Assembly (NCBI GenBank): GCA_973895155.1
Contig: OZ316895.1
Coordinates: 23,510,558 to 23,574,557, forward strand
DNA length: 64,000 bases
DNA from: Marsupella aquatica
Lineage: Eukaryota; Plantae; Marchantiophyta
Reading direction: 5' to 3'
The translations under genes were made by a program, and so were the position numbers. Position 1 is the stretch's first letter. The number at the start of each line of letters is the position of its first letter. This document shows positions 13,076-64,000 of this stretch, in pieces. The notes under the pieces were generated by a model. The model saw only the letters and a list, made by a program, of their open reading frames with translations. It had not been told where the DNA came from and ran no database searches.

Positions 13076-13329
13076 CAGCTTGGGAGTAGCTGAACAGTTG
13101 TGGATGCGCTCTGCCGGAATTACTGATTGTCCCTTGGTGAGCTTGCGGTCCACTTAGACAGTATTGACCACAGCTGGGGGCGAGCAGACAGTCCATGGAC
13201 CTATGGCAGGATTGGCCAAGGCTGGACAGATTGTTGAGCAGGAAGGGACTGCTCAATCTACTGCTAAATAGCAATCATCGGCTATCTCTTCTACCCTACA
13301 AAGAGATATTAGGGATTTGGTGGAGAGTT

Positions 13330-16395: not shown

Positions 16396-16570
16396 AGCCG
16401 ACTAGTTATCATTTGTGTTCTCTTGGCAGATATGGATTGCAGGTAGGTGATCGATGGGGCTCACTTGCACCCGGCCTCCTGATCTTCACACCTAAAAAGG
16501 TGTATATCAACCTTGTAGAACTCATGGCTAGCTAGAGTTAGGGGACCTTACTCCCAGCTAGGGGGGCGAT

Positions 16571-32701: not shown

Positions 32702-35673
32702 GTTTGAGCATTCAAAACGCTGCACGGGACGGGGGCTCCATATAGTGCCACCCCCAAGGCCTAGAAAAAATTGTATGGCTTCAAGTGGAGGGAATTAAGG
32801 GGGCTACAGTTTGCTGCCCAACTGGCCCAGTTTTAGATTCATGGTCTGTTTTAGGATTTATATTCAAATTGCACTTTGCAACCTTACTATGCAGTTCCTC
32901 TACTAGACATTTCAATTTGTTGCTGAGTTAGTAGAACTTTAGTTCTTTGGCCATTTGTACTGTTGGGGCTATTTTGGCTCTTTGGTTTTCTTCGGATTTT
33001 CCTATGGATTCCCCCATTTGTTTGTTTGGTTTTTGTCCTATTTGGATTGTTTCCATCGTTAGTGGGTTCTTACTTGGGGTTCCTTTCTCCCAGTATGACC
33101 CATTTGGTTGTTTCTTTTGTACTCTTATATATTCCATAGTTTCAACCCAACCAGCCTGAAAAATCTTACATCTTTATCACGTGGCTTCCAACGCATCTGT
33201 AAGTAATTGAAGGTTTATTAAATTATTCGTTTTGCTCTCTTTTCCTGGTAATTAAAACAGGGTTAAATGTTCCCTCACCAAACCCTATCCTGTTGCACAA
33301 CACCCACGCCACTCAGCTCCTGCCACCTGCTGGGGCATGTATCATCCTTACAAAAAAAAGGAGGAAATCCAGCAACACAACAAAAGGCAATCATGAGGTT
33401 AAGGGGAGATCGAATGAGGAGGGGCCTTTGGGCTAGATTTTATTTACTGGAGGTTTTCTATTGACTCTTAGACTAGATTTTTTAGTATCCTTTCTTGCCC
33501 ATCTGATTCATGGCAGTAGTTTATCAGTTATATTGCATTATTTATGGAGCTGCATGGAAAGTGAGGTACTTAGCAGTGGGGGCCCCATTGGCCAGGGCCC
33601 ACTCCTCTCTGCATACTCATGAGGGCTAAGCAATCAGGAAAAGCGAAGGCCAAGTCAAAATCTGATCCTTGCATGTGGGTCCCATATTTTGAATCTTGCT
33701 TTTTCATTCTACTGTATGACATATCCTATGACTGTAGATATAATTGTTTTTGAATTTTGGGGATTAACAAGATTTTTATCTCCATTTCTTGAGCATGGTA
33801 CAGCCTAATTTTGAAGGTTTTTCCATTTTGCCAGTGTGGCGAATGTCACCTTGCGAGAAGGAGAAGATGCCAGGAATATTCCTTATCTACTTTACTACAT
33901 TAATCTCTGGAGATGTTACGATGACCCTTAGATTCTGGCTATTGGGGTCATAGCTACAGTAGGTGGGAATCTGGCTAATGGAACATAGAAAACCTACACT
34001 AGTGAAGTACGGCCAAAGTGGTCAGGGCTTCTTAGTCAATTGTTAGCACTAAAAAAAACATGCTTGGCACCTCCTTGGAACCATGCAGTCCAACTGCACA
34101 GTTTTATGGAATGAGGGTGACCAAGGATTGCGCTTTTGACGACAGTGATATAAATAGATTAAACTCTCGATGTTGCATGGATTCTATGTGGAAGGCTAAC
34201 CCGTACCCATAGAAAAATGAAAAAATATGCATGCAGTTCAATTCCCACCACACGTATAAATCTCATGTGAAGATATGCTCTATACAATATGATTGTGTAA
34301 GGTAACGCGTGGCCTTGAGATTACAAAGGAAAAAACATACAGTAGGGGTTTATTTCTATAGGAATCCAATGGTGACGACCAGTGTTCCCGTTCTGTGCAA
34401 ATATTTAGCACTTTTGCTCCGGGGTGAAGGGGCTTGCAAATAATACAATGAGGGATTTAAACTGTTTTAGTAACTTATCTGCAATATCAACTGTCTGGAT
34501 CTGACTGTACATAGATATGATGGTCATAATGTGACCATACAAGTCCAATATGCAGTTTTATCTAAGTGACAATTTCTTAACTGGCTATAAGTAGCACCTG
34601 CCTAAAAACAAACGGAAACACTGGTGAGGACCCAGGTTTTGACTATCATTGTACAATGAATCTTGACACAAATATAGATCATTGTTATCTAAACTACTAG
34701 AATAACTCAGACCTCCATGTCTATTACTCCTCTAAATGTGACGATTGACAAACACATTTCAAAATGAGCATGATGGTTTACATATCCTTTGTTTACCATT
34801 TGATGTGGAAAAAGAGTCTGGCATACTCAGGACTGCCTGCCACCCCAATATCTCCCTTTTCCTCCCTATCATTGCAGTGCAGACATGACTGTCGGGCTGA
34901 CCTGGATACACAAAATGTCCAGCCACCGCACCAATTTCCACTACAACACTATGCACCTCTTTTGCGAACCACCACCCTTCGCATCATACAAAGGAAACAA
35001 AATCCGAAATACCCAATTTGCGAACTTACTCGCATCGCAACGTCTTCGCTACTTCCCATCTCAAATTCTTCGCAAATGGCCCTTCGCAACTACTTCGCAA
35101 CTTGCGATTCTAAATACGTCGCAACATCTCCGCAACGTTGCGACGGCACTGTCCTTGCAAATATTGAGAAACGACAAATTTCATTATTTTGCGAGAACAA
35201 ATGAATCGCTCGCGTTGCGATAACATTTACATCGCAATTTCCGATGTTAAATTTCTCTATAACTTGCGATGCAAACAAACTCGTAAGATTGCGAGAAGCG
35301 GATGACCGCTTTGTTGCGAAGGCATTTAACTCGCAAACGTGTGGAGAGGAAGTCTTCGCTAGGGTTGTGATTTAGACAACATCGCAAGTGTTGCGATGCG
35401 TTTCTCCTCGGAATGGTTGCGATACGTTCACCGTGGCTCTTTGAGATGGGGGTTGGTTCTCAAAAGCTTCGCAAAATGTATATTTCATGGGTTTTTGTGT
35501 ATTTGGGTTAGGGTGAGGGTGAGGGAGACCATTCATGGGTTTTGAAGCAGGGAGGAAAGTGATGTTGACCCAGTCTGCCGCAATTAAAATGGCATTACTG
35601 AAAAAGTACAAAAGTTACAAAATGGAAGGGTAAAAACCCTTAGGTAAAGTGCCACGGCCATGCATGCTGATCG

Positions 35674-37825
35674 CTATACATGTGAACTCGATGTAAGTGC
35701 TCTAGCTACAACTTGTCTACATCGAGCTAGAAAGGAGTGTTCCTGCCCCTCCTTGCCTTCTTCCCCTTGGCCTTCTCCTTGCCCTTGTGTGCTCTTGGGG
35801 GGGGGGGGGGGTGCAACCTGGACTTCCTCCTCCTCTTGGTCACCCTCGGGGTCACCCTCATCCTCATCCTCATCCCCACCTCCACCGCCCTGGCTTGCCG
35901 CGCTACCACCCCCAGCACCACTGGAACGTGCTGATGCAAATGACTGGTCTCCAGTGCTAGTTGGCCTGGCTTGAGTAGCAGGAGCTGTGCTCCCCTCCCC
36001 TGTCCCCTCCACATCCTCATCACTACTATCGGTGCCACCCTCGGTATGGGAGTCACCATCCTCCCCTCCCTGCTTCCATTAGCAAACTAGGGTGTCTGTT
36101 AGTCTCATATTCTTTACAAGTGTGAACAAAAGAGATATTCATTCAAAATTGCAATGAATGTAATAACCTAAAAATTCTCACCAATAATTCATCAACTTGC
36201 TGAAAGAGATGCTCCTTCCCATGTTTCTGGCCCACCTCCATCTCAGCCGCCGTAATCTTCCTCTTGTACCTCTTGTACTAAGCCAAAACAAAACCAGCAC
36301 AATTGGGTTAACACCAACCCATAACCCGATTCACATGGCTTCTAAAAATTAGGGGGTTTGTTGGGGCTGGTGGGGTGGTGCATCAAGGTTTTGGGGTTAT
36401 GGAGGGTGGCATATATGGGGAAGACCCTCAAAGAACACTTAAACGATCGGAAAATTTAAAAATTCAAATTTTTGAAATTTTGCGAAGGCGCCAGCTTCGC
36501 AATCATAAGGACAATTACGTTTGCGAAGCTGGTTGCGATGCCAATGTCTTCGCAACGCCTTCGCAAACGTAAGCAAAAAAAGGGCATAATAAGGTTTGCG
36601 AAGGATTTGCGAAGCTACCCGCATCGCAAATGTATCGCAAACTCTGTCATGGCAAAAACCCGAGAGGGAAGCAACTGTACGTGACCTAATCTGACACAAC
36701 AAGTCTAATTGTAACTACTTGGTGGAAATGCAAGAAAGAGTTGGCTCATTGCAGGTGTGTTGGAATAGGAATTGGAGTAGCAAGAAGTCAAGGGAGGAGA
36801 GGGAGGTGCACTCACGAATGTTGCTTTGAGGCCGGGGAGGCCACCTTGACCCAGCCTGTGGGTGATGTTGGGCTTGTCTCGGACTCGCTCAGCTGCCTTC
36901 AGGAACTTGTTGGGTGGATCGCCTACTTCTGCTACAACCTGCTAGAGCTGGGCTACCTTCTGCTCCATCACCTTCAGGTCCCGGTCAGACTTCCCGGCCT
37001 CCTTTGCCCTTCGAGCCTTTGCCAGCTTCTCTGTGAAATCATTGAGGAGCCTGGCTGCTTTCAACTTCACCTCTGTCTGGTAGAAGGCCTGCCAGATATC
37101 TTCTGAGAATTGCAGCGGCCTCTGCAAATTCCTATACTCCTCCAAATCTCTAAGGTGAGACCTGATCTTCATTCTATCATGGTATCTAGCTTGTGACATG
37201 GAGTTTGAAATTTTGTCAGCAAGCCACTGTGAATCCATCTCTCCTCCATTTCGAAATGCATCTTTCACCTGATTGATGACTCACTTCTGCTCTGCCTTTG
37301 AGCGAGTGCCCCACTCGACTCCTCTTGCAAAATTTGTGGATACAATGTGCCTGATTGTGCTCTTGGCCCCATTGTAAGCAAGCTCGGTGGGAATCCCCTC
37401 ATCCTCTAAAGTAATCAGAGGCAGCTTCCTCCTTGCTGCCTCCTTCTTTCTTTGCTCCTCCCTCTGTTTCCTGATCAGGTCTCTCTCATCTTTCCTCCTC
37501 TTCTTTTCCAATGCTTGAGGCGAGAGCACTCCAGCCTGAGCTCTCTCGTCCCTCTTTCGCTTCCTCTCAGCAGCCGCCTGCTCTACTGCCTTCCTTGCAT
37601 CCTCCTCCACTGCTGCTTGCCCTGCAATGAGACCTGCTTGCAAGGCTTGGCCCAGAAGGGCACTCAATGATGCCAGCCCTGCTGGACTGGTGAAATCAAT
37701 TTGACTCAATTGTGCAACCGAAAAATGCTCATCCACAATCGCCTTCAATCGATCCCCCCCCCTCGGTTGCCTCCGCTGCTGCCAGAAGCTCCTCCATCAC
37801 CACCAGTCCCCTCTTCGCTCGCCAT
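35674..37825 (-). pseudogene. CACTA second gene (TnpA/ORF2-like); exons 36816-37825, 36182-36277, 35674-36069
   Basis: EDIWQAFY and THRLGQGGL resemble the H-x-LG-x-GG motif of CACTA ORF2 proteins, and splice phases are consistent. Disrupted by a frameshift in a C9 run (~37755) and in-frame stops at 37281 and 36942. Confidence 0.62.
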
Positions 37826-38558
37826 CGCTCCGCCCTTGCCCTCGTTGCTCTCCTCAGGCCTGAATGAACTGAATCCGCCTTGTCCGCGCTCGGCAATCCA
37901 TAAGGATTCAAAATATTGGGCTTTGCGATTCGTTTCGCATCGCAGTTTGCGATGCATCGGCCTTCGCAAAAAGCTTCGCAAATTCTATCTTTGCAAAGTT
38001 TCAAGATTCGCAAAAGCCTTCGCTATTTGGTTTTGCCATAACCCCCGTCTCGCATGCGTATTTGATGTATTGTTAGGGATACTAAGGGGGCTTATGAACA
38101 TTAAATGGGGTAGATGTAGAGGATTATGTTGCATTTTAGTGGGATGTGATGAGATAAGGATTGGGGGGGTTAGAAAATTGAAGGAGTTATATTGCAGGGT
38201 AAGAGGAGGGGGTTTGGCCTGGTTAGGGGAGGGTTTCTTTTGTGAAGGTTGGGCTTAGATTGGCTTAGATACGAGGGGTTTTATGTTTTGGGTTTGCAGG
38301 GGGTTTTATTTATGAAGGTTGGGGTTATATGTATTGGAGGGTAAGAGCTAGGAGGGGTTTTATGTTTTGGGTTTTGGGGTTTAGGCCAACTTAGGAGGGT
38401 TTGAAAGAGAGGTTTCAGTTTTATAGTATCTTGGGTTACTTTTATGGTATCTTAGGAGGGTAACCAAGAGGGGTGGCATATAATTATGGTAGAGAGAAGC
38501 ATAGGATGGTTGAAGGGAATTGACCATTTAGGTTTTTGCTAACTTCATTGGCTTACGC

Positions 38559-39551
38559 TTTTAGAGTTCCCAAGGGTCTATGGTGGGTTTTTATTGCATG
38601 ACACTCACCTTTCACTTGAAGCGGGATGAGGTTTTGGTTTTTATGCTAACAATTGAGGGAAATCCCATGTAATCATGATCCAGTGCAGGACCATCACTGC
38701 TTCCTCAACTTTTGTCTAATGCATATGCATTGTGGGAACCCGGACATCTAAAAGGTATATTTAAACATGTATGTTAGCAGGGTTTGATAAAGAGATTGTT
38801 CATAAACCTTGCCCTTCTTTGTTGTGCAAGAATATCTATATGCACATGTTTGGGGGTCTACAACTTGAGAGAAGCTAATGGCTATCCAAACTTACTTTTT
38901 TGTTTCCAGTATTTTCCTCGTGCTTCTAGATTCAGCTCATGTTCAATGAGCCACACGACCTACAGGCACTATTGAGTCCGGATCTCATTCAGGTAATTAT
39001 TGTCCAACTTCATTCTGGGCTTAGGCCTTTAGAGTTTTCCCAGGGGTCTAGGGTGGGTTTTTATTGCATGACACTCACCTTTCACTCGAGGGGGGATAAG
39101 GGTTTAGGGTTTAGGGTTTTATGCTAACAATTGAGGGGAAAACCCATGTAATCATGATACAACGCAGGGCCAACACTACTACCTCAACTTTTGTCTAATG
39201 CATATGCATTGTGGGAACCCGGGCATCTAAAAGGTATAACATCATGTATACAGTCAATGTTGTTAGTACAGATTTTTATGCTTGCCCTTCTTTGTTGTGC
39301 CATGATATATGTGGGTAAATGTCTAAGATTCCACAACTTGACGGCTGCTAATTACCATCCAAACTTACATTTTGTTTCCAGTATTTTCCTCCTACTTCTA
39401 GATTTGGCAAATGTTCCAAAAATCACGTGACCTATAGGCACTGTTGAGCCCGGGTCTCATTCAGGTAATAATCTAACCTCACTTAGGACATAGGGTATTA
39501 CAATTTTCCCAAAGGTTATAATGTGGTTTCTTCTTGCATGACACTCACCTT
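38559..39551. repeat. ~470-bp tandem duplication (2 copies plus a partial third) between the divergent CACTA genes
   Basis: TTGCATGACACTCACCT at ~38595, ~39065 and ~39535, with matching flanks. Confidence 0.8.
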
Positions 39552-39707
39552 AATTTGGGTTTCATGCTAACAAATATAAAAGGGTAATAAAGCCCCATGT
39601 ATAAACCAACCTAATTGTTTTTTGAGTTCATTTTTTTAAAAATCGCTTTATATATGGCCTAATTTTTCCTAATCATGCCCTACATGCAATGTAATGTGGC
39701 AGTGGAT

Positions 39708-40874
39708 ATGTCCTCTTCCTCTGAACTATCCAGTAGTGAGTACTCCTCCGATGACGATATACCCCCTCCTCCTCAGCCCGAGGTTACTGGTCCTCGTGGT
39801 CCACCCCGAAGACTTTGTGACTGCACCAGATGTGTGGGCCAAATTTCTCAAAAATCTTATGTGTGTGCTCAACATATTGAGAGATATGGACGTCATAGAG
39901 GTCTTACTCCTAGGGCTTCTTCATCCCATATGGTAAGTTTGTTTCAATTGATTGCGGTTCTTTACTGTTATTTTTAGAGGTGAATCAATGTTTACACATA
40001 TGGTTTACACATTTGGTTGTTTGTGGGTGTTTGCATGGAATAGGGATCCAGTATGCGTAGATTGGTGACACCACCACCCTATGTCCCATCACAAGGAGTT
40101 TTAGATGCTATAGGCAATGCACTTTCACAAGCCTTGGGTTTGGGAATTAGTACCAGTCATGGGACAGAAGGGGAACACCCTCATGTGCCCACTGAGACAC
40201 GAAGACCCCGGTCCAGGCCCCAATCCAACAGGAGGCCACGAGCACCCAATGACCCATCCAGAACACTAGTTCAGGGTAGGTGGGGTGTTTGTTCATTCAC
40301 TGGCAAGTGTGCCTCTATCATCAAGGATTGGGAACCTATCACTCTTGGCTTGCCTTATTTTACAGATTTTGATGAGGAGATTGTGGTTTGGGGTAGACGT
40401 TGGATTGTGAAAACTTCCACACTTGGAGAGAGACATGGATATGGAGTATTTGCTTGTGAGGATATCATCATGGATGAGGAGGGTGGGTCAAGTGTTCGTG
40501 GTAGAGAGGGTCCTACTTTGTTCCCATACGGTGGACCCATCTACAAGAGAAGACATTGGAACATGATCCTTGCACAACATCCTGAGTGGAAAACATATGC
40601 TCTAGAGATGGATACTTTTGATGGTAGCACTAGAAGGTATAGTGAGCAGCGGGTGATAGATGGTGATCCCATACGTAATGGGAATATTGCTGGTTTCATA
40701 AATAGTACTGTGGGGACTCGGCCCAAGCGTAGGGCCAATTGTGAGTGGGTTTTTACTGATGGTCCAATGCCGGCACCATATGGCACGACATATCATAAGG
40801 ACCATTGCTTAGTTCTTGCTACTAGGACCATTAGAGCAGGAGATGAGTTATTCACACACTATGAGTGGGATTAG
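39708..40874 (+). CDS. SET-domain lysine methyltransferase-like protein in the CACTA element (exons 39708-39932 and 40044-40874)
   Basis: SET motifs HGYGVFACEDI, PYGG, YAL, IDGD..GNIAGFINS, NCEW, LATRTIRAGDELFTHY. Open frame with no stops and a phase-0 GT-AG intron. Confidence 0.82.
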
Positions 40875-43800
40875 GAAATCATGTCCTTTATCCTCTTGCA
40901 CCTATTTTGGACTTCCCATTTACTATTATATATATGGCCTTTGGGCTCATTTTGGAGTAATAAGGTTTTAGCCCATGCATTTACTTTAATTCTTAATGTC
41001 TTGAATGAATGGTGTTAAGTCTATTTTAATTTGTTGTACTTGGTCAAATATACATGAGGAGGTTTTTTGGTTGTAATGTGCATAGAATGCGCAACCATCT
41101 CAACAAATGTTACCACGAAGGTTGAGAGCAACATATTGGGAGATGGGTATGCCAGAAGAGGGAGAACCATCAGAGGGTGATTCCTCATCAAGTAATGATG
41201 TAGGTGGTGCTGATGAGGAAGCCGCACCTCGGACTGATGACCAGGTCATGCATGATCAAGATAGAGCCATGGATGACTTCATGGTTGATTGGTTTGGTGC
41301 CGATGTTGAGGATGATGTGCCTCACATTGGTCATGAGGTTGGCCCTTCAAATGACCCACGGCCACAACATACTCCAGAGGGACAACAACAATGGAAAGAG
41401 GCAGAGGAACATGCTCGAACACCTATTTTTGAGGGTGCTCGGTTGAGCCGTCTTTCTGCCATATTGGGGCTCTTGAACATTCAAGCCAAACACAAGACAA
41501 GCAATTCTATGTTATCAGACATATTTGAATATTGTCATGACTTGATGTTACCCTCGGAGAATGTGTTGCCAGGGACCTGGAAGGATGCAAAGAAGGTTCT
41601 CTCATCCATTGGTATGGATTACCATATTATTCATGCCTGTGTGAATGATTGCATGTTATTTCACGGGGATACAGCCCATATCACAGAATGCACAGTGTGT
41701 CATGAGCCACGGTATGAGCCAAACATGCTAACCCAGAAGGTACCAAGGAAAGCAGTTTGTTGGTTCCCCATAATTCCTCGCTTGTTGCACATGTATAGAT
41801 GTTCTTACTTGGCCGAGTTGATGGTATGGCACAAGAAACATCGTTCGGAGCCCGGTGTCATGCGATTACCAGTTGACTCTCCTGCTCATAAACATGTGGA
41901 ATCAACATGGCCAGATTTTGAGCGTGACCCTCGGCATGTGCGACTGGGGTTGGCATCAGATGGAGTTAGCCCTCATTCACTTGGAGGGAAGGGGAGACCT
42001 ACATCGGTCTGGCCTGTGGTTCTCATGAATTACAACCTTCCACCATGGTTGTCCATGAAAAAGGGTTTTTTGTTGCTATCTTTGATTATCCCAGGGCCAA
42101 AGAAGGTGAAGAACATGGACACCTATTTGACATTACTGGTTCAGGAACTCCAGAAATTATGGGAAGGAGTATGGGCATATGATGGTCGAAAGACTACAGG
42201 GGGTACCCCACGGGTTTTCAAACTCAAAGGGGTTTGTATGTGGACCATGCATGACTACCCAGGTAAGAACTTTGTTGTTTAAATGCATCATATTCTAATG
42301 CATGGTATCCCCTCATTTCCATGTGCTAATCCTAACATAATGTGTGTTTATATGACCAGGATTTGGCTTTGTGAGTGGGTTGCAAACCCAAGGCTACAAG
42401 GCTTGCTCCACTTGTGGCCCAAGCCTTGGTGATGTAGCCAAGTATTCATCACATCTTCGCAAGATTGTTTATCTTGGGCATACAAAGTTTCTTCCAATGG
42501 GACATCAGATGAGGCGTGACCCACTACTATTTTCCTCTATTGATATGCCCTTTGGTGACGAGCGTGATGTACCTGAGCCAACAACTTTTACACACTGGAA
42601 AGACATGGCTGCAAGAGTGGCAGACCCAGAGGATCCCATGCAATTTGATGGTAGTGGCTTGACAAGGTGGAGTATATTAACCACTTTGCCCTATTGGGGT
42701 GAGTTGAAGATCCGCCATCTATTAGACCCCATGCACATTGAGGGAAATGTGGGAAAGGCTTTGATAAAGGCTTTCTATGGAGAGAAAGACACTAACTTCA
42801 GGGAGGCTTGTGAGGATCTTGAGATGCATCCAGACGTGTGGGTCATAAGTGATCCTATCACAGGGATCGAGCATCGACCTTCAGCTCCATGGGTGCTTCC
42901 TATTGGCCAGAGAAGGGAGTTTCAGAATCGCATAGGAGACATGCGGTTTCCTACTGGTTATGGTGCCAATCTCCGAAAGGCCTTTGGGATGGAGGACAAT
43001 CATAAGTGGCCAAGGTATCTCAAGACACATGACTACCATAGGTTATTGCAGCACATATTGCCTGTGGCCATAATAGGTTTGGCAAGTGAAGAAGTGCAAG
43101 ATGCCCTTTGGTCATTGGGAAAACTATTGAGATGGGTATGCTCTAAGGAGATATATACTGATGAGATCCCTGGGATGGAGGTTTTGGTAGCAGAGGTGGT
43201 ATGCAAGTTGGAGAAGGCCCTTCCTCCTTCCTTTTTTGACTGTCAAGTGCATTTACTTGTTCATCTTGTTCATGAGGTGGCCATTGCAGGTCCTGTGCAT
43301 TGTCGGTGGATGTATTGGCTAGAACGATACATGGCAGTGTTAAAAGGTTATGTACGTAACCGTGCACGGGTTGAGGGAAGCATGGCTACAGGATACTTAG
43401 CAGCTGAGAGTATGTTCTATTGTAGTAACATATTGGCCACAATTGATTGTACCTCTCCCCGTACTTGGGTAGAGGAGAGGGAAGATGAAGAGGATCGTTT
43501 AACAGGTGCTAGGAAAACTCGCATGTTGACATCAGTGGAGGTGAAACAACTGACCACATTCATGTTGAGTAACAGCACTATCATGGAAGAATGGAGGGAT
43601 TTCTATGAGGATGCCAAAAGTAACAGCACAAGACCAAGGATTTTTCCAAAGTACCTTGACTATATGAAGGAGAAGTTAGTTGAGGTGGATGACATGGTGG
43701 TCAGGGGAGAGAGTGTATTACATTTTCCGGCTATCACAGATGATGTTCGTACCATTGTTCATGGTCCCTTGAGAGTGGTTACAACAAGGACAGCAATGTG

Positions 43801-44479
43801 GACACAAGGAAGACATTTCAGGTGATCTCCATCTACCTTAGTAACCTTTGATTTGAATCACTTGGTTTAATTTAATTCATTTGTAATACAAGCACGTATA
43901 TTGAAGAGGCAGATTCTTGGTGTGTTCAATTAATTGGAATATGTTTGTGTCTATTTTTGTGTAACATATCCTTATGGTTTGATGGATTTTAGGATTTCTT
44001 CCCTTGATGAGAAGAGGGGTCGTACCTTTGATTGTGGAGTTCAAGGACAATTCTCTCAAGATTCCCGCAGCAGTCGGCATGACACAAATATTATTCGAGA
44101 TGTTGTGCCACATTATGGAAAGGTAGAAGAGATTCTAGTGATATCTTATGATGCACAATCAAAGTTTGAAGAGTATGTCTTCAAGTGCAAATGGTTCAAA
44201 GTGAACCTTGCAGGTAACAATCCTACTGTGGTTCAAGATGAGTGTGGATTTACACGACTGAAGACTTCTGCCACTAGTTTCCAGCCATCTCATTGGCAAA
44301 CATCAGAGCCGTTCACTTTTCCAAGTCATGTGGAACAATGTTTCTATATTCCATACCCCCCAAACCCAGAGGAATGGTCACTTGTCATCACATATGTGCC
44401 ACGGTCTCGTTCAATCGTTGGGGAAAAGCCTGATATTCTGGTTGTGTCCCAACCTGAAGATGATGAGGACCAAGTTTGA
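39708..44479 (+). CDS. CACTA TnpD-like transposase (predicted exons 39708-39932, 41086-42262, 42360-43821, 43993-44479; 1116 aa)
   Basis: N-terminal CDCTRC..CAQH..YG transposase-associated motif; IHACVNDCMLF; LASDGVSP; YNLPPW; HDYPG; MHIEGNV; LKTHDYH; HLLVHL..GPVHCRWMY..ERYM; HYGKVEEI..FKCKWF. Exons sum to 3351 nt with no stops. Confidence 0.92.
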
Positions 44480-46562
44480 GGGGTCTGTGTTTGTGGATAT
44501 ATAGCTACACGGATATATAGTTAGATTTGATGATATGAAGATTTCTCTTCTCGGTAGAATGGAGAAATATGCGCTTCTCAATTATCAATAAACTTATGTT
44601 TTGTAAGTATATCATTTTCAAATGTTGTTTTCTATATCTCCCATCCCTACCCCACACTCACCACACCTTTTGGTAGACTTTATGCAAAGAAAACTCATGT
44701 TGCTTGTAGTCCTCTATCCTCCATGCTTTCCTAATCCCCCCTAGCTGTTCTCCTTATTACTTGTACCCACCTCCCTCCTCCTTTCTTTCATTGTCTGTCC
44801 CTCTTATTAAACCCTCCTTCCTCCTTCCTCTCCTTGTCCCAACCCCTGGCTTTCTATTTCAACCCTATACTTTCCTTACTTTCCACCCCTGTCCCCCACT
44901 CTTACCTATACAACCTAGCTTCTCTCCTCCCTCCTAAACCTATACCCTTAAACCTCCCTCATTTCCTTGTCCCTCTCTAAACCAATACCCTCCCTCCTTT
45001 CCTTGTCCCTCTCTAAACCCTAAACTCCCTCCTTTTTATTTTCACTCCCTAAATCCAAACCCTCCCTAAAACTATATCTACATACCCTTCCTCCTCCCTC
45101 ATTTCCTTGTGCCCCCTAAACCTGTATCCTCCCTCTTGGATCCCTCCGTTCCTTGTCCCTCCTAGCCCCATTCCCTTCCTCCTCCTTTTCATTGTCCCTC
45201 CCTAAAAATTACATGTATCCACCCTCCTTTACCCTCCCTCCCCAATCCCATTCCTTTTCCACCTCTTTGAAGCGCTCATAATATTTTGCGAAACATCTTG
45301 CGAAACCCCTACACCCGCAAACTCATCGCTACATTTGCGATACTTAACAGCTCCCTAATTGCCATCATCCCCTCATCGCAAACTTCCGAAGATACCACCA
45401 TCTCAAAGTTGCGAAACCAAAACATTCACAAAATGAGACCCTAGACAGGCACAGGATTTGCGAGCCTATTACTATTGCAAGTTAGCCATATATTCCACAA
45501 ACATCGCTCATTTGCGAGACAATAAGACTCGCAAAATATTTTGAGATGCTTAAATATTCGCAACCATTTAGTTTTCCAGCGCATCTCAATGAATTTGCGA
45601 AGCGGTAAAGATCGCTAACTTGTTCAATGGTAATTGCTTCGGGAATGTTTTGCGATACCTGAAGTGTCGTAAAATGTTGCGATGGTCTAAGTTTCGCAAT
45701 TATGTGTTGCGATGTGTGTAGATTCGCTAAGTGCGATGCGTATCGTATCGCAAGGTTAGCGATGAGATTAATCTTGCAAAGCTTTCTTCCTCTTGTAAAA
45801 CGCCTTCGCAAAATTGGCAAATATGTAGTAGTGTTCCCGTCCAGAGATTTCCCTCGCCATCATGGAGAGTCACACTTACAAGAAATCTTGAGAGACGGAA
45901 TATGATTTGGCATACTCTTGGAGCACTTAAAATACAAGGAAGGCAATTAAATATGGCTGATGTCTGCTCCACAAGGAAGAAGACAACAAACACCCATTCT
46001 GGTTCTACCCTTATTCTGGCTCTACCCTTACGCCCAAAAATGTGGTCCAGGAGATGGGTTATAGTCATCCATCTTATGAAACCAACTGTAGCAGTCTTTC
46101 AAGAGGCTTCATTGTCTCAATCTTCATCAATGAGGGCCTAAAGAAGATGACAAATTCTGTTATGATGGCAAGTTCTCTCAGGGCTTCATTCGCCATAGTG
46201 TTTAGGAGCATTCAATTTGGATTCAAATGGTCACCATGTGGATGTGAAGTGGTCAATCTGCCAATGTATTTTTGTTACAAAAGTGAGGGTGTGTTAGATG
46301 CAGTAGGACCTGTTCATGTAATCCTAAGTGAAATGATGGCTGTAGACAGAGAATTATGCTGGATGTTTATCTGTCCATCTATCTCTAGGGAGAAACAAAG
46401 AGTGACAAGGAAACTGGTGACACATGAAACAGTGAACTGTCCCTGCCAGAACCTAGGGTGATAGGAGAAATGGCCAGGTGATAAGGGAGATGGCAAGGTG
46501 ACATGGGATATCTCTGGACAAAGCAAATATTCAACCCATTGTCAAATACTTTAAGGTCATGC

Positions 46563-48426: not shown

Positions 48427-51400
48427 TCAGTCTGTCTTCTTGTCAGCTGCTTTTTGATCACCATCAGCTGTTGGCACCTCTCCTTCAGATGTGCTTTCTT
48501 CAGAGACAGACTCATCAAAATCAAGTAGCTGCAGTTCAGGCAAAGACAAGTAGGCCACATGTAAGTACGCTGGTCCATTCAACATATTTATGCAATTATC
48601 TTTCAGGTAGTCCTCCATGAGATCTTTACCGCAATCGTAAGGAAAAATGATGCAGAACTTTACCGCTTTGACTTCTCCTTTCATCAAACTGTGAACAGCT
48701 ACGAAACCAATAACACCTGGTACAATGTAGAGTAGAGCTGGCTGCAACACACAAAGAGGAGTAGGTTAGAGACGATAAAAAGTGAGCATTCACCTAGCTG
48801 TGGTCTTAATAACGACGTAATCTCACGTGAAACAGACGTGAAGGAGATTGGGAACATATCATTCGCTTTCAACATTTGCAGAGCTCACATGTGCAGATAG
48901 GATGTTTCCGTAAGGCTAACCTGAGCAGCTTGAAACCAATTCATGACAACTATGGTCACCAATAATCCTGCAGTATACCCCGCAAAGGCACTGTTGAAGT
49001 AGCGTTTGCCGGTCTTCTGAGAGACGTCAAACCGTAGAGCAAGGGCTACAAAAATGCCTGTACATGGAATTCAATTAAGTCAGCAACGAGTATACATATC
49101 TGAAAGAATGAGAATTTGGAGTTTAAAATAAAATCCTGGGGACTGACGTAACCACAAACCTGGAATGACAATGTCGCCCAAGCCCAGCATGGAGAATGGT
49201 CGGGTTATATCTCCTGTGGGAAATATCAGCTGCGGAATACACGAAACAAACAAATATCAAAATTTCGAAAGCAATGCTTCCGACCTGAAACTTCAGTTAT
49301 TGGATGATGTGAAGAAAAGCCTACATTACATGGAAAGTGTCTGACCCAGTGGCTAAGATTTAGTAGAGTATATACCCCAAACCTATCTGCCAGTGAGGAG
49401 TGCTTGAATGCCCTTTTGTGTAGACCAACTACTGCAACGCATCGAAGGGAAATGAATGATGTACCTTGATAGGAGCGTCAAATGACTTAGCAACGCTGAC
49501 CATAACCGGAGTAAAGAAGACCCAAAATATGTCATAGAAAAATAACCCTGCCTACAAAGTACCAAAACAAATTATTCAGTAATAGAACGAAAGTCTGGGT
49601 ACGTTATAAACTTCGTAAGCCGAAAATAAGTAGGAGATACGCTACACAGTAATTGCCAATTAAACTTCACTTTCTCCACAATGGGGAACGGTCCACAAAA
49701 CACTCCCATCAGAGAAGTTTCGAATGAGAACATAACAAATACATACCAGCAGGATCGCACCGATCTTGAATGATCCTAGAGACAACATCTCAATACCCTG
49801 CAGGAAATTTGCAAAGAGGCAAAGACTATTGGTCCTCCGCGAAAATCTTACGACAGGGAATTCAGGAGCTTGACCGGCATAAAACGTGAGAGATGCAAAC
49901 ATTGTGAATTCCAAGATGTCATTGTGTATATTTTCTTCAACAATATTTGAAACCAAAGTGATAACAAGAGCATTAAATACCTGTATGGAGAAGGCCAACC
50001 CCAGTGTATTGTTTGCCAGCCAATGCTTCTTCAAGACATACCAGACACAAAAAAAGGTGCCTGGAATGCCTGCAATGACCTGCGACTTGGTGAACACCAC
50101 CTCCACTTCTGCATTGTATCCAAGGCAATTAGTTTTGGCAACGTATAAGTCAGCTCATCGGTGTGCCACAAACTATTTGAAGACTTTCGTTTTCGGGAAG
50201 ACATTATCTCTCTCCGGCCATCAAATGAAAGCATGTGCACATGGATAGGCTAAGAATGGTTTTGGCACATATTCGCTGTGTCAACACAACTGGTACAAAT
50301 TATTTCAAAGGGATCGAAGTGACCAGTTCAACAGGCAAGGAATTACGAAAGAGAAAATGCGCAAAACTTCGGGAAATCTCACTTTTGAAATAGGGGAGAT
50401 CCCAGGTGATAGGGACATCATTCCAACTTGGGGGCAGGAAGCTGTCAATCACCGGTAATATTGTTGCACTGCAAAACATCAATAGATGTAAACCAGATGG
50501 TAAGCACACAATCTGCAACATTCACGTCTCAACATATTGCTCCAATATTCAAGGCTATCCAAAAACACAAATCTCTCTGAGACGGTCATGAACCGTTTGG
50601 TAGAAATGAAACAAAGTGAACAATAACATCTAACGTTCAGACTGATGCAGAAAAGGATAGCTTAGCATTGCCCACAAAATTAGTGATTTTGAGCCCACAT
50701 ACGATAGCGCAAGAATGCCCAGAACAAAGAAGTAGACCGTGAGGACTGTGTTGATCAGATCCTTCGGAAGGAACTTGAATAGAAGGAAAAGCGAGAAAAG
50801 AACAGCACTCCCAATGAATGGAAAGCGCATTGCGTGCTCCTTCGACATTGTTTCCTGCAATACACAGACAGCCCTTAGAGGTGCATCAAAACCCTACGTG
50901 AATTTTCACCTTGAGTCAAACAGCCTATCCAGCCAAAATTAAAGAGCTAGAAAAAAGCAGATTAAAGGAGGCAGAGAAACTTACAGTAGGAGGCGCAGGC
51001 TTGACAGAGCGGTGGCAACCAATGAACACAGTCAGGCATGCTGTTGCTATCACATTGAAGTTCGGGTTCACTGTCACTACCAGAGGTGCCAGAGTCAAAC
51101 CTGCAAACGAAAGGTGTACAAAAGATGCCGTGCTTAAGATCAAGCTCAAAACATCTGAACTCCACGGGCCAAATATATTTTTTGCGCTCGCTGTGATCCT
51201 TAAGGGAACCAAGGCCACACCTGATGGCTAATACAGCACAGCTGTGGCTGATGTACAGGAACATTCCCAAACCTTACCAACGGCATACTGCAAACCTACA
51301 AGGTGTGGCTTTGAATTTAAATTGGCGTAAATTGAACTCCCAAGAAGCAAGATAGAATCCCAGACTGATGCTTGAACCCGGTTATTTCGCACATTGCAAG

Positions 51401-55563: not shown

Positions 55564-56601
55564 CTAATCATCATCCGAACCATCATCAAGTCCTTCCAAA
55601 ACATCAAAAACTTTAGTCTTGAGCATGTGGAAGTGTTCCCTGAAGAGCGTCTCGGCTTCCTGTTGAAGTTTAGTTGCTGCAAGCGTCCGAGCGAGTCTGA
55701 GCATGTGTGGCACATTATCTACTGTTAATTGTCGGCAAAGCTCAGAAAAATTCCTTCAGAAATCCAATTTCCAGACAATGTGCAGCTCTGAGGACCTCAT
55801 CAGGGCGAACAAATTCCGAGAAAGTTAATTCTCCAGAATGACAAAAATTCGATAGTTCTTCGTAGACTGGGTCTGTGCCAGAAAACAGCTCCTTGACCGG
55901 TTTCAGTCCAGTTCGACCATTCGCTATCGCCTCTTGGACGAATCGTGATTTTGCAGCCTGTACATCATGTTGAAACAATATTGTTAACCAACGAACAAAG
56001 ACACTCATATATCCTAAAGTCACATTTAAGATTTGATTTTCATGAAATGACGCCAGAAGTAAACAAATATTTCGAGGTCCAACTACACCGTCATTTTTGA
56101 GGAACAGGAAACAGACGTTGGCGTGATGTCAGCCAATGGGATTAGAAGCAAGGAGTACAAATTCCTCACCACGACAGACAAAATTACAGCTGCAGGTGTA
56201 GGCACCGTAGAGCCATTGAGCTTTCGCATTGTCCACGCAGGCAGAAACTCGCGGGGCAGTTTCAAAAACTGCACCATAATTCCCTGGCTAAGGTTTTCGG
56301 CCTTCAGCCTCTCAACCTCCGATAGTAATTGCTCGTACTCTGTGCTCTTGTTCGTCAATGCAAGGGAGCTCTCGGCAGTTATCCTGGACAGTTCAGTTTG
56401 ATGATTTTCTTTGGACGCGGCAAATGCAGCCCGCACCAACCTCAATTCAGCCTGAAGTTCCGTAACTTGTTTCTCATGGCGCGATTGACAACTGGAGCAG
56501 CCAGAGATATCCAGACGATATTGACAGCCACTTACCCAAGTACGAACCACTGCCGGTAAATCGGCCTCCAAACAGTATTTACAATACTTCTGTGTTGACA
56601 T
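55564..56601 (-). pseudogene. Cys-motif/coiled-coil/BTB-POZ gene, copy 1 (frameshifted)
   Basis: Exons 56170-56601 and 55564-55957. A 5-nt deletion relative to copy 2 near 55745 (FLKEF) shifts the frame. Confidence 0.75.
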
Positions 56602-58671
56602 TACTGCTAGATAGCGATCGGTCTTTCAAGACATATCAATTACCGTTTATTCGAGAAGCTAAGCATTGAAGCCAAGACGTTCTAAAGGGAAGATCAACAA
56701 GTCAATCAAATATATTAAGGTTGAAAAACGACGAAGATGTCACTCATGAACTACTCAAGAGCAGATAACACGACAATCGCTTGATACAGATCATCTCTAG
56801 TGAGAACCCGGGGCACGGCAAGAGATAACACGACAATCACTTGATACAGATCATCTTGAGTGAGAACACGGGGCACGAAATAGAACACTGAAGCCGGGAC
56901 TGACGCACGATATAAATCTCTCTACCATTTGTTGAGTGAAATACCCACTGCTGATTTTGTCTGCTTGGACAAACCGGAAATGGCGGGACTCCAGGAATCT
57001 ACTAGGCCGATCTGGCGATCTGCTGTGTGTTCGCAATAATTAAGCACGGAAGGGGACTAAATGGGTTGAATAATGTGGCCGCCAGCAGCCAGCCACCCTG
57101 GCGGCGTAATGTCTGTAGTATGCAGGTCATAAGAAATAATGTGGAATCTACTGTACTGTAGATGTACCATATGTCTGCCGACGAAACCAGATGATAACTC
57201 AGTCATGTAAAGTACTCCCCACAGCATTTCTAAAACCATGCCTAATTCGTTGTTTGTTTCGTTGAAATGCTGAGCCACGTACAGTGATCTGTCCACACGT
57301 ATAGGTGGAATGACTGTGTTCAACATGCGATGTAAGTCATAATTACTGGACCCGCGCCGCTGAGTTGTAACTTGCGATCGATTGAAATGCGGCCAAGTGT
57401 CCCTTTTATCTTTTTAACTTTCTTCCGAGAGAGGTTACTTTCCGAAATTAACGAGTCACAGCAAGTTCAACAAGTGATGCATTTACAAGTGCTAGAGATT
57501 AGTGTATACTTTCGTCTGACAATAAACTACTGACTGTGTTTCCCCTTCAACTGTCATCGATGTTACCGATCAAACGTGACCGGGATGGCAACTACGATGT
57601 TGAAAACAGACGTTGCCAATTGACCAGTTTTCTTATTTCAAGGGTTTAAGCTTTGAAAGAAACGCTAGTTTTTCTCTTGTTTCAACGGTAGGCGATATTC
57701 CTTGTTAACCATAAAATTACTTTGCAATCCCGAGAGAATTCATTCCTTAATCTTCAGGTACACGTAGGATAGACATACTGTAGGGCTACCGACGAAGCCA
57801 GATGATAAAGTCCTACAGTCAGTATAAAAAAGCGCAGCATTTCTAAAGCCATATCTAATTTCGTTATATGTTTCCTTGAGATGGTAAGCCACTTACGGTG
57901 ATCTGTCCACACGGATGGGTGGAATGACTGTGACACAGAGTTCAACTTGCGACGTTAGTGATAAAATACTGTACCCCTACGCGCCATGTGTTCTTGAGAT
58001 GGATTGGAATGTGACGAAGCGTACATTTGCATGTTTCCGATCCGTCCTACTAACAGGGCAGCTGAGTAGTCTCGCTGAGATCCCGGCTGAGATCGCCTTG
58101 CTATTTAATGCAGGTGGAGGGAGAGGGCGATCGAACGCGCGAATGTGCTCCAAGAAATTTAGCTACCAAGGAGATTGATAAATCAACGATGGAGACCAAA
58201 TTTTAGAAGCAGAAAAGGTGCCATAAATATGATGCCATACAGTTTGGACAAAACATCATGTAATTAAACCAACGACCATGTAGTTGATTGCAAGCAGATT
58301 CAACCCTGACAAAATTGGTTGAGATGCGGGAATGGTTCCACGACAGCTTCCAGAATTCAGACATCCTTCTTCAAGAGAAAGGAAATCTACACCTCAACCA
58401 TTGAGTGGAAGCAGACGTCACGCTATTTGCTTAGCGTTCGAGTTAGACATTCGCAGGAAATTATAGATCAGGAATTTATAGATCTTAGTCAAAGGGCAGC
58501 TAAAATCCGAGGAAGCATCATCCAAAGAAGGATCTTCGAACATGATACCGTGGGAAAACTAGATTCAAAGAATCATTTCGTACTACTACATTTGGAGCCC
58601 AGTAATTATCAAAATACTGGCAGGTCCCGAATGTGGAATTGAAATGGTTCAAAACAGGTCCTTCCGAAACA

Positions 58672-59952
58672 TCAGATCCTTCCGGTCGTAGCATGATCAA
58701 GACCTTCTAGACCGTCATAAAACTTAGTCTTCAGCATGTCGAAGTGTTCCTTGAAAATATTCTCCGCTTCCTCTTGCAGTTTAGTTGCTGCAAACTTCCG
58801 AGAGAGTTTGAGCATCTGTGGCACATTATTTACACTTAATCGTCTGCAAAGCTCAGCCTCACAAAACTCCTTCAGAAACCCAATTTCCAGATTATGTGCA
58901 ACTTTCAAGACCTCATCAGGAGGCACTAGTTTCGAGAAAGTCATTTCCCCACGATGGCAAAACGTCAGTATTTGATCGAGTATTGGCACCGTCACAGTCC
59001 CAAGAAGATCCAGTAATGGTTGCTCTAAAATTTGACTTGCGCGTAGCATCATCCGGACGACTGGCGATTTTGCAGCCTGTACATGTAACAAGGCATAACA
59101 TCAATTACGAACGGAGTACATATCGACGACATAACCTTAATTTACCTAGTATCTGCTTAGACGTCCTCCCAGCTGGCTTCCAACATTTATTTCGACTCTT
59201 AGATTCGACAATCAAGGAAACCAATTCAAATTGAAACTGACTTCCTACGCAATGTCCTCCAAGAACCACTCACAAATCACCCCATGAACTTTGGAGAAGA
59301 GAATGTAGCATGCATGGTGTTAAAATCAAGAAAAAATTTAGAGGTCGATCCCCACCGTCATGAGGTGTTTCGTTTAGAAGGAAACAGAAGCTGACGTGAT
59401 ATCAGCCAATTGAATTGCAAGTATGGAGTACGAATTTCTCACCAGGACAGACACCAGGACAGATAACTCTGCACCTAGACGTGGAGGTATCTTGAGGCCA
59501 GTCCTGGCCGCTTGCAGTTGCCACACATGCACAGGCGGGGGGTGCAGTTTTAAAAATTGCACTATATTCCGCTGGCTGTCGTTCTGAGCCTTCAGCCTGT
59601 TAACCTGCGACAGTAATTGTTCGTACTCCGTCTGCTTGTGCACCAAGGCAATCGATCCCTCCGATAGCAATTGCTCGTACTTGGCCTTGTTGTTCATCAA
59701 GGCAAGCGAACTCTGGGCTGTTATCCTGGACAGTTCAGTTTCGTGACTCTCCTTCCCGCTTTCTTCCGACTTTGCAAATGCAGCCCGCAGAGACGTCAAT
59801 TCCATTTGAAGGGCCATAACTTCTTCCTCATGACGCCGTTGACAACTGGAGCAGCCCGAGATTTCCAACCGGTGAGAGCCGTTTTCCCAACTACGAACTA
59901 CTTCCTTCTGATCAACCTCCAGACAGTATTTACAGTACCGTTCTGCATTCAT
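58672..59952 (-). CDS. Cys-motif/coiled-coil/BTB-POZ (BACK-like tail) protein, copy 2 (intact, 304 aa)
   Basis: Exons 59443-59952 and 58672-59076 are in phase. VL|AAKSPV..M, ILTFCHRGE, VLKVAHNLEIGFLKEFCE..L..NNV are BTB-type motifs. Confidence 0.82.
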
Positions 59953-62448
59953 CACTTCTAGATACTGGTCACAATTTACAATGTGTGGGCGTGATCGAGA
60001 TGGATATAGCTACCAAAGTAAGCGTTCTAGAGGAAGATCAAGATGTTGGCGAATTCCTCAACAGGAGAAACCACGACAATCACTTTATATCTATCATCTG
60101 GAGAGAGAACTCCAGGCAAGCGGTAGAACACAGGGGGACGTACCGCTCATTTTTGCACTTCGACAAACCTGATCGAAAAACGGCAAGACGGATTCAAGGA
60201 ATCTAGCAGATCTGCTGCATGTTCATAATGATTACGGTGCTTTCATTCGTGTACAGGAGGCCATGCCCTTGGCGGCCCAATGGCTACCAGAATTATAACC
60301 ACTCCTCTACAATCCCGAGGCAATTTATTCCTTTATTATCTTTGCTCGTGGTAAAGACGTACTGTAGAGCGAAGAAGTACTCTGGGTAGGGTTCCATCGG
60401 CCCTCATACTACACTTTGAGGGTTTCTCGTAAATCTTCATATTTCTGGGAGTCTGTGGGAGCCGTATTCCATCTGTCCTCATACTACACTTTGAGAGTTT
60501 CTTGTAGACCTTCATATTTCTGGGAACTTGTGGGAGAAGTATACCCTTCCTGAATTTTTATGAGACATTATTACTGCCACTGAACTATTGGGCCAGTTGG
60601 AACTGGGACTTCTGAAATTTGAATGAGAAATATAATAAATGTAAATGATAGACAAGTGAATGCTTTGTAAAAATTCACTCAAGCTTTACACTTTGTAACT
60701 GATCTTCACTTGGGGATAATGGCAATAACCCCCTTGGGGATGGGTTACCCTACACATTATTTGTTTGCAGGCAACCCTCTGGTTTGAAAATTGTCTAAAA
60801 TGAGAGCAGATGGCTTGCAACCCATAAGGTTTGTTTCAAATTCCAATCGGCTCTCAAGTTCTAGTTTGGTGTACACAGTGAAGTATTCTTTAGAGGCACT
60901 ACGGGATGTAATGCACTGCAAACAAGAAGTTTTACCTCAAATTTTGAGAAGTTATTATGTTGAGCATAGACAATTATCGAAACGACAAGTTTATGAACCA
61001 TGAATTTTCACTATCAAAACAAATATCACTTGGGATATAGAGTGTATAGCCTAGTTAACCTACTCTAGTTTCCAACTAGATAAATTAACTCTAACTACGG
61101 TTAGGGCCCGTCACCTTAGACTAAAAGTAAAAGCCTAATATACTATTGCCCATGATGTTCCAAAAACAGGCCCTAAGTGCACTTGAGGTACTGAATTATT
61201 TATTTATTTTAACTTTGGTATAACAAAAAATCCTAAAGAGGCTAATCTTGAATGGGCATTATGTTCCAAATGAATGCTCTCAAGTATACAAAATGAAAAA
61301 TCACTAAAGGCATTAAGTTTAGAATAGTATGAAATAGCCTTCTTTGACAAGCTAAATTTGTTAATACTCTATTCAAGATAGAAGAAAATTTACATAGAAT
61401 AATCTTTATTGATGACTAAGTTAGAATAACTAAGTAATAGAACAGACCACCTGCAGTAGGTATATGCTCACTGAATTGAATATGGCCGTCATTTGTGTTG
61501 AGTCCGCCAAACAAGGGGCGAAGTTTCTGTCAGATCACATCAAAACCTGTCCCCCGGTAAGTTGTCTTAAATCGTAAAATGAGGCTAATGAAGATCGCTA
61601 ATCTAATCCCCACGAGCAGCAGTTCTCGTAAAGGATGCGGCATTGTCGAAATACTCATCTCTGTGCATTTATTCATGAGAACTCTCAGTGTATCACGGTC
61701 TGTCCCAGCTGACCTCGAGTTACCGGCCCTCAAGACATCTGAAAAGATGCTATGATCAACTGGAATTTCGTTCGCTATATTGCCATGGATTCCTCAAGAG
61801 TATACATTCGCCCATCCCAAATTAGTGTAATTTAGTTGAACTCAATAGTCGCCAGCTCCTGGAAACAATTTCAAGGGTGTAACCATTGGACAGTATCACG
61901 ATAGGATAACAGTACTGTAACCAAACAAATTTAAATTCTTACGAGGAGACGCTGTACTATGCAACCAAAGTAAATCGGAATTTTTGGAATGGAGATACAC
62001 GCAAACAAATATTTCATGAGAGACCTACAGTAGCTACTTCGAATCCGTAGAGAGGACCTGTTATTGTGTCAAAGAAATTAACTGCCCAAGAACACGTAAA
62101 TAATGCCAAACTTGACACAACGGTAATGCAATTAAATCAAAGACCATACAGTTGATTATGCAGACAGAACTTAGAAGTTCCTGCTTCAGACAAGGACAAT
62201 CTCCGCCTCGACCTTGAAGAGTAAGCAGACATGATCGACGCTGATTTGTTCAGCGTTCAAGTAAGACACTCTCAGGAATTTAAATACAGATTAGACTGAT
62301 TGTTCCTAGTCAGCGATCGTCGCTAAAATCAGGGGTCCAAGCATCAGCCAAAGGCACTTCCAATAAAATCCGCGAGAAAGTGGATGAGAACGATAATTCC
62401 GAACTACATAAAATGGAGGCCAATCAACTTGTCTAAATCCTGAGTTGT

Positions 62449-63562: not shown

Positions 63563-64000
63563 CACTGCCAGCTAGTGATCACCCGTCAAAATATATATCT
63601 TACAGTCTGTTCCAGAAGCTGAGCATCGACGCTTAGAAGCTACCTAGCTAGTACCAACAGTGAACGCTCTAGACGAAGATCAAGATGTCGATCAATGAAG
63701 GCTAGGTATTCGATGACATCTTTCAAGGCCAAAACATAAAATATCGTTGACACACTGCTCGACAGGAGATCAAACGACAATCACCGGAAACCGATCGTCT
63801 CGAGAGAGAACTCGAGGCACGCAGTACGACGTTGACGGGCAACGTTGATCTCAGTACCATTAGTTCAATGAAGTAGCCACTGGGTCAGCTTGTTTTCCTG
63901 CTTGCATGGGCAAGTCTCCAATGGCGGGAATCAAGGTATCTACCGGGCCGTTCTCTCTGTGTTTGTAATAACTAAGCACGGAAGGGGAATTTACAGTGAA

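Follow-up and report, generated by a model that had tools for sequence, protein, structure and literature searches.

A SET-domain exon inside a CACTA element of the liverwort Marsupella aquatica, with a predicted coding exon common to the SET protein and the transposase

We analyzed a window of 64,000 nucleotides from the genome of the liverwort Marsupella aquatica (GenBank assembly GCA_973895155.1, contig OZ316895.1, positions 23,510,558 to 23,574,557 of the forward strand; positions below count from the first letter of this window). It carries a complete transposable element of the CACTA (En/Spm) superfamily, with a SET-domain exon lying just upstream of the transposase core. Considered together, our results are probably best explained by an element in which one Cys/His exon is spliced either to the SET exon or to the transposase exons, and in which the SET protein would likely act on the chromatin of the element. 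The element is a member of the CACTA superfamily (as defined in PMC4158355, cited, like the other papers below, from excerpts): it has CACTA..TAGTG ends, a 3-bp target-site duplication, a TnpD transposase and subterminal repeat clusters, and the Pfam matches above cut-off inside it are SET (27.1 bits, cut-off 22.4), Transposase_21, DUF4218 and DUF4216.

Splice sites and reading frames

The Cys/His exon, hereafter exon 1, ends in the donor ATG/GTAAGT after position 39932 (the slash marks the exon border) and is followed by two acceptors, GAATAG/GGA at 40044 (acceptor 1) and GCATAG/AAT at 41086 (acceptor 2), all three in phase 0. Joined to the SET exon (276 codons, stop 40872-40874), exon 1 forms an open frame of 351 amino acids (aa). 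Joined instead to 41086-42262, 42360-43821 and 43993-44479, it gives 1116 aa with a terminal stop only, and all introns, including the further transposase introns 42263-42359 and 43822-43992, are GT..AG. A first-pass annotation of this DNA had predicted the donor, both acceptors and both products, and all of its coordinates are correct. The GC content is 0.31-0.35 in the introns and the spacer behind the SET stop versus 0.43-0.48 in the exons. Because that spacer contains no usable donor, acceptor 2 needs a donor upstream of the SET stop, and there the donor of exon 1 is the sole well-scoring phase-0 site in the coding region (8/9 consensus), the other being a 6/9 site at SET codon 204. The exon 1 donor is the best phase-0 partner candidate for acceptor 2.

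We scanned metagenomes for exon 1 and obtained 63 loci, Sphagnum-type by their likeness to named proteins, except for L019. Loci of sufficient length have exon 1, SET and transposase in the same order, with a CACTAC left end. A phase-0 donor GT was found in all 47 loci that reach the end of exon 1 (of the 63 fetched), and acceptor 1 is AG in 25 of 29 loci and AA in the remaining four copies. Acceptor 2 reads CATAG/AAT in 9/9 loci with transposase sequence, which belong to a single family of closely similar copies (the sequences of L018 and L032 end before this site). Independent support for this site is provided by the end of L019, which also reads CATAG/AAT, by a second subfamily (runs X1 and X3), which is unlike the window throughout the spacer and becomes similar again precisely at the TAG (41083), and by contigs of run X5, which read CCATAG/AAT AAG TGG CCC. 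Conservation of the two acceptors in other copies, which the first-pass annotation had named as a check on its proposal, was therefore found, reaching three diverged lineages for acceptor 2 while the spacer drifts. Between the window and L010, identity upstream of 41086 is 6/6 over the last intron bases and then 4/10, 8/24 and 23/60 farther up. The seven codons before the ATG at 41107 are kept in length, with Pro encoded by CCA, CCT or CCC, and the pattern P-S-x-x-M-x-P-R-R-L-R is found again in the predicted protein P0251. Contigs from the five runs are of DNA type, spanning introns with no splice joint, and carry no information on expression.

Exon 1 is likely the first coding exon rather than the first exon, because an AG lies 5 nt 5' of the ATG at 39708, in the window and in 47 of the 54 mappable loci (nine unmappable loci were dropped), and because conserved, putatively non-coding exons with AG/GT borders lie upstream (Table 1). 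Of the first-pass description of it as a first exon, the donor and the coding part stand, and "first" probably applies to the coding exons only. A tandem duplication of ~465 bp at 38541-39551 (78% identity) doubles two putative leader exons, each with upstream ATGs.

Searching with the SET exon protein returned 46 proteins, the named ones coming from several Sphagnum species, Calypogeia fissa and Riccia sorocarpa; the Sphagnum SET cluster has 360 members, of which 40 were read and 15 listed. Models of 343-351 aa (351 aa in Calypogeia fissa) start with this Cys/His exon and have their junction to SET at the identical place, and one Calypogeia model needs exon 1, since it has no Met near the start of its SET exon. 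In protein P0140, exon 1 and SET form a single unbroken open reading frame, carried by a Logan contig of 2,141 nt that may represent a spliced transcript. A SET profile search yielded 149 clusters at 50% identity. Among the 45 new profile matches of at least 225 aa, four fit the Cys/His pattern in its strict form, and a few others fit when it is relaxed. Because the Riccia models P0181 and P0205 join the SET family to Transposase_21, the pairing of SET and transposase extends, by these predicted models, to distant families.

The Cys/His and SET modules

The Cys/His motif of exon 1 had been called transposase-associated in the first-pass annotation. The motif itself is present, with pairwise ratios of nonsynonymous to synonymous substitution rates (dN/dS) of 0.10-0.16 to relatives (four pairs), and it has no Pfam match in the window; weaker tests point to the proposed association. 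In a profile-profile comparison with the TnpD N-terminal module, the HH probability rose to 70% (P 4e-5) once eight more diverse bryophyte motifs were included, a test that is partly circular in that Cys/His patterns were used to cut both sets. When the bryophyte motif profile was run against full-length TnpDs, its best match fell on the N-terminal motif in most of them, which did not happen with reversed controls. Most of the long angiosperm TnpD matches carry PF13963 and start with a C-P-C-x2-C..H-L module, and in an unbiased Pfam scan of the Riccia homologue P0170 PF13963 was the sole match, at an E value of 0.03, below the cut-off. The structural model of exon 1 had no match in the PDB at E <= 0.001, its weak matches being mostly C2H2 fingers, which is at most a hint. 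Altogether this is moderate evidence for a transposase-associated module.

The SET exon was modeled with a predicted local distance difference test score (pLDDT) of 76.5, with exon residues 32-67 disordered, and its fold is that of a SET domain (Foldseek E 4e-8; best Z 12.2, root-mean-square deviation 2.8, 134 residues aligned). SET lysine methyltransferases are marked by the motifs G-x-G and Y-x-G, by an Asn that is followed by His in RFINHS, and by a C-terminal Tyr. Across 56 homologues at 25-84% identity, we found conservation of G132 (54/56), G134 (56/56), Y/F162 (56/56, with Phe in 14 and otherwise Tyr), N220 (52/56) and Y273 (54/56). E268 is kept in 52-56 of the 56, and a small residue precedes H272-Y273. 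Of the solved structures, the one that matched best by sequence was LegAS4 (E 2e-7), which shares the N-x-S and L-L-x-x-Y deviations. Since LegAS4 is described as a methyltransferase of histone H3 lysine 14 (H3K14), these deviations do not rule out catalysis in the SET protein encoded here.

Pairwise dN/dS to relatives (four pairs each) was 0.24-0.28 for the SET core and 0.10-0.18 for the transposase core, values raised by decay in many of the relatives. The synonymous rate dS is 0.53-0.64 in SET and higher, at 0.88-1.25, in the transposase. Purifying selection on the SET exon, as seen in these ratios, its unbroken frame and its constant place in families from mosses and liverworts argue that it is not passive cargo, as the first-pass annotation had maintained. 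Scans for SET relatives gave 12 pattern matches in viral contigs and 29 in prokaryote genomes, none of which was confirmed, at a reach limited to close relatives; a bacterial or viral origin of the domain is neither shown nor excluded by them.

Proposed mechanism and alternatives

In the mechanism that we propose, transcription from one promoter near 38.0 kb would run through the non-coding leader exons into the coding exon. If the near acceptor is then chosen and the message is cleaved and polyadenylated in the 211-nt spacer, SET would serve as an alternative last exon and the predicted 351-aa protein (zinc module, linker and SET) would be made; if the far acceptor is chosen, SET would be skipped and the product would be the predicted 1116-aa zinc module-TnpD protein. 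We consider such alternative splicing of SET and transposase from a shared exon likely. The SET isoform would methylate lysines, plausibly in histone tails at the element, and so keep the element expressible. An S-adenosylmethionine (SAM)-dependent methyltransferase activity of the SET protein is predicted with good confidence, histone tails as its substrate have about an even chance of being correct, and an anti-silencing effect is a tentative prediction. The choice of splice site would also cap transposase output. The most far-reaching version is doubtful as a whole: an active histone methyltransferase made as an isoform of a transposase gene, a shared zinc module targeting both proteins to the element, a splice choice that switches between chromatin marking and jumping, and a multi-copy family with intact frames, for which horizontal transfer may have occurred between peat mosses and leafy liverworts.

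Several observations weigh against this reading, in addition to the partial circularity of the profile-profile test. Most of the loci are near-identical copies of one family, leaving about five independent lineages, and the gene models are predictions. The N-terminal module common to SET and transposase, as put forward in the first-pass annotation, is the best reading of the conserved splice sites, though an inferred one, and the 39932-41086 junction is present in no annotated protein: none of the seven exon-1 proteins (222-707 aa) joins exon 1 directly to the transposase, and no bryophyte transposase was returned among 45 proteins of 857-2445 aa, lengths of 708-856 aa not being covered. Identity to L010 is 11/21 in the first seven codons after 41086 and 22/24 in the next eight, and the ATG at 41107, 21 nt past acceptor 2, is found in 9/9 loci and in P0251. 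When exon 1 alone was compared with a profile built from 26 TnpD N-termini, it scored 3.9 bits, a score that 4 of 1000 shuffles exceeded. As to the SET protein, the fold search leaves EZH2, SET8, Set1 and SET7/9 tied at Z 11-12, so that no substrate is readable from it, the His after Asn in RFINHS is replaced by Ser in 53/56 homologues, and the exon is without post-SET cysteines.

The leader exons, together with the ATG at 41107 in all nine loci, give rise to the main alternative, in which the leader is spliced straight to 41086, the transposase starts at that ATG (1034 aa) and the Cys/His exon serves SET only, with promoter and leader in common. A conserved leader donor (36 of 43 loci), a frame from 41107 that is open in such a message and the weak conservation of the first seven codons all fit this arrangement. 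It would, however, remove the N-terminal zinc module typical of most angiosperm TnpDs and place a short out-of-frame ATG at 41087 before the start, and it sits poorly with an acceptor 2 that is in frame, with the kept codon length and synonymous Pro codons behind it, and with the Riccia model P0178 and model P0214, which have no Met at the apparently equivalent place (aligned by eye). We therefore regard it as unlikely. A tandem pair of separate SET and transposase genes, each under its own promoter, with the AG at 41085 being incidental, is very unlikely: a 3' untranslated region (UTR) and a promoter would have to fit into the only 136-211 nt that separate the transposase exon from the SET stop, and CATAG/AAT is fixed in five lineages while the spacer diverges, although the ATG at 41107 is conserved and split TnpA/TnpD genes are documented in some Arabidopsis Spm families (PMC13547354; bioRxiv 10.64898/2026.08.24.746577). 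We give still less credence to the use of an internal SET-exon donor in addition, which would produce fusions of exon 1, partial SET and transposase and make SET partly a transposase module. Predicted chimeras exist (P0021 of Sphagnum jensenii, P0181, P0205 and P0178 of Riccia), and two sites within SET are conserved, a weak phase-0 GT (codon 204) and a phase-1 GTGAGT (codon 233). Yet the chimeras are cut at differing points and have lost SET motifs, as would be expected if a gene finder had erred on decayed copies, the stronger of the two internal donors does not match acceptor 2 in phase, and the SET stop codon is conserved.

Other alternatives concern the role of the SET protein. With splicing as we propose, the protein could be a non-catalytic binder or decoy, or could methylate a non-histone target such as the element's own proteins. 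The Ser in place of the RFINHS His, the Phe at position 162 in a quarter of the homologues (14/56) and a fold search that singles out no substrate class would agree with this, but G-x-G, Asn and the C-terminal Tyr are nearly invariant over the whole range of identities, and an active enzyme with the same deviations is the best PDB sequence match; we hold this alternative to be possible, if on the unlikely side. CACTA elements are known to capture gene fragments, a general precedent for SET as passive, Pack-CACTA-like cargo. Such a role is contradicted by the selection data (dN/dS 0.24-0.28) and by the same position beside the transposase in Sphagnum-type loci and Riccia models, and no close host SET gene emerged, the best solved matches having at most 30% identity. 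We find passive cargo scarcely credible, and favor a shared Cys/His exon spliced to either SET or transposase.

The element, the window and known systems

The features of the element are collected in Table 1. It contains 52 of the window's 72 TCGCAA sites, clustered at both ends and at 36.5 and 37.95 kb. The subterminal motif CCTTCGCAAA, with five copies in the element, resembles CCVTCGCAAA, which is bound by Arabidopsis TnpA-Spm1. On the minus strand, a divergent accessory gene shows 63-84% identity to related loci and a dN/dS of 0.135. This copy has in-frame stops at 37281-37283 and 36942-36944 that are absent from most other copies, whose contigs read G at 37283 and 36944. The gene had no Pfam match above cut-off, and an Atlas search returned weak, unrelated-looking matches only; as a candidate for a TnpA-like second protein it is conserved and matched to no family.

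Table 1. Positions of features of the CACTA element in the window.
Feature	Position	Strand	Remarks
Left 3-bp target-site duplication	34936..34938		TTC
Complete CACTA (En/Spm) element, 10,895 bp	34939..45833	+	CACTAC..GTAGTG termini, TTC flanking each side
Left terminal inverted repeat and subterminal TCGCAA cluster	34939..35475
Divergent accessory gene, no family match	35700..37825	-	Ends approximate; starts at ~37.8 kb
TCGCAA cluster between divergent genes; putative bidirectional promoter region	37923..38013		Same-place cluster in L029
Putative non-coding leader exon A1 (duplicated unit)	38689..38754	+	AG/GT borders; similarity in L019, L028, L045
Putative non-coding leader exon B1 (duplicated unit)	38910..38992	+	AG/GT-bounded, conserved
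Putative non-coding leader exon A2	39168..39233	+	AG/GT-bounded, conserved
Putative non-coding leader exon B2	39382..39464	+	Donor AG/GTA in 36/43 loci where exon mappable
First coding exon (exon 1)	39703..39932	+	ATG 39708; 75 codons (225 nt to donor); phase-0 donor end
C-x-C-x2-C-x13-H motif, likely transposase-associated (PF13963-like) zinc module	39816..39875	+	Predicted hairpin and helix
Intron to proximal acceptor, 111 nt	39933..40043	+	GC 0.33; acceptor AG in 25/29 loci
SET exon, predicted alternative last exon	40044..40874	+	Folded core 40269-40871
AT-rich spacer, 211 nt: predicted 3' UTR/poly(A) region of SET mRNA and 3' end of long intron	40875..41085	+	AATAA at 40959; no usable donor
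Transposase exon after distal acceptor	41086..42262	+	In-frame ATG 41107
Transposase exon	42360..43821	+	Transposase_21 C-part, DUF4218
Last transposase exon	43993..44479	+	DUF4216
Right subterminal TCGCAA cluster and terminal inverted repeat	45280..45833
Right 3-bp target-site duplication	45834..45836		TTC

In run X1, which may be the source sample, inner pieces of the element had a depth of 506-607 with 0-4 differences versus 16-20 for the flanks, depth not being equal to copy number, which hints at tens of near-identical copies. One locus (L063:3243-3394) is an internal deletion derivative in which exon 1 jumps to the end of the third transposase exon. The closest named protein to exon 1 is from Calypogeia fissa (79% identity versus 64-68% for Sphagnum). 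The SET exon of the window is 67-70% identical to both Calypogeia and Sphagnum proteins, with Riccia far more distant. Relative to L010, L029, L044 and L049, the element shows an unsaturated dS of 0.5-1.25, and an alignment of intron 1 is still obtained (66%). By these comparisons, which covered sequences of the element only, it may have been transferred horizontally between mosses and leafy liverworts. The Calypogeia models P0193 and P0297 (503-506 aa) and the Ginkgo biloba model P0243 are distant members of the SET family and may be host or domesticated genes.

Elsewhere in the window, a long terminal repeat (LTR) retroelement at 6902-17008, with identical 300-nt repeats (6902-7201 and 16709-17008), carries a C5 DNA-methylase fragment at 12294-12932 before the reverse transcriptase (33 bits in Pfam, exceeding the cut-off), and its integrase is followed by a PHD finger at 15454-16392. 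By these domain matches the retroelement, too, is a mobile element that carries chromatin modules. A 3-4-kb unit is present in three diverged copies at 55585-63900, one with a BTB/POZ match at 62452-63072, and fragments at 769-1299 and 49663-50154, both on the minus strand, match the GAPDH C-terminal domain and signal peptide peptidase.

If our reading is true, a land-plant element would carry its own lysine methyltransferase, wired by splicing to its transposase, and would have a direct route both to writing chromatin marks and to rationing transposase; the plant transposon anti-silencing factors VANC and TnpA are, in contrast, DNA-binding regulators. The SET family is diverse, with dozens of clusters at 50% identity, and many of its members pass for ordinary "SET domain proteins" in Sphagnum annotations, so that the number of host SET genes can be overestimated. 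The intact 351-aa frame makes substrate and function directly testable.

Transposon SET accessory genes and alternative splicing in En/Spm are both already known, and the nested, shared-exon form in land plants appears undescribed. No SET exon in a bryophyte CACTA element was found in the literature searched, which excluded Repbase Reports, subscription journals and bioRxiv supplements, and the excerpts of bioRxiv 10.64898/2026.08.24.746577 contain no SET domain. SET lysine methyltransferases borne by transposons occur as accessory genes in HarbingerS and oomycete MuDR families (PMC12730594) and in Helitrons. These belong to other superfamilies and hosts, with no shared exon described in the excerpts. 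Red-algal Plavaka belongs to the EnSpm superfamily, and its accessory gene PAG2, like Helitrons, carries a SET domain (bioRxiv 10.1101/2025.02.11.637652). PAG2, however, is a gene of its own and encodes a fusion of SET with an N6-adenine methylase, whereas here the transposase is of the plant TnpD type (the best long matches, mostly named as angiosperm, are TnpD-type at 29-34% identity), the coding exon is predicted to be shared, and Pfam finds SET only, with no N6-adenine methylase domain in the SET protein. The minimal SET enzymes LegAS4/RomA (PDB 8swi, 8sr6, 5czy), SET8 and EZH2 resemble the SET protein in fold (Z 11-12), and LegAS4 also in having N-x-S for N-H-S and a non-aromatic switch position. 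They differ in sequence (at most 30% identity), the SET protein has no ankyrin repeats, and there is no sign of the same substrate or of common descent. VANDAL VANC and Spm TnpA of Arabidopsis are likewise transposon proteins proposed to alter the chromatin state of their own element, but they are described as sequence-specific DNA-binding regulators that cause DNA hypomethylation, with no SET domain.

In maize En/Spm, one alternatively spliced gene yields both TnpA and TnpD, and split genes occur in related families (PMC13547354; bioRxiv 10.64898/2026.08.24.746577). With En/Spm and with Arabidopsis EN/SPM3 and EN/SPM7, the Marsupella element shares CACTA ends, a 3-bp duplication, a TnpD-type transposase and two products per spliced gene, the last being a prediction here, and its TCGCAA sites are akin to the subterminal CCVTCGCAAA clusters of Arabidopsis TnpA-Spm1. 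It differs from En/Spm in its additional, separate divergent accessory gene without family match, and in its alternative product, which is a helix-turn-helix TnpA there and here a SET-fold protein, encoded upstream of the transposase core in a predicted alternative last exon. The element thus resembles Spm in the way it is predicted to be spliced, and its cargo is that of SET-carrying transposons.

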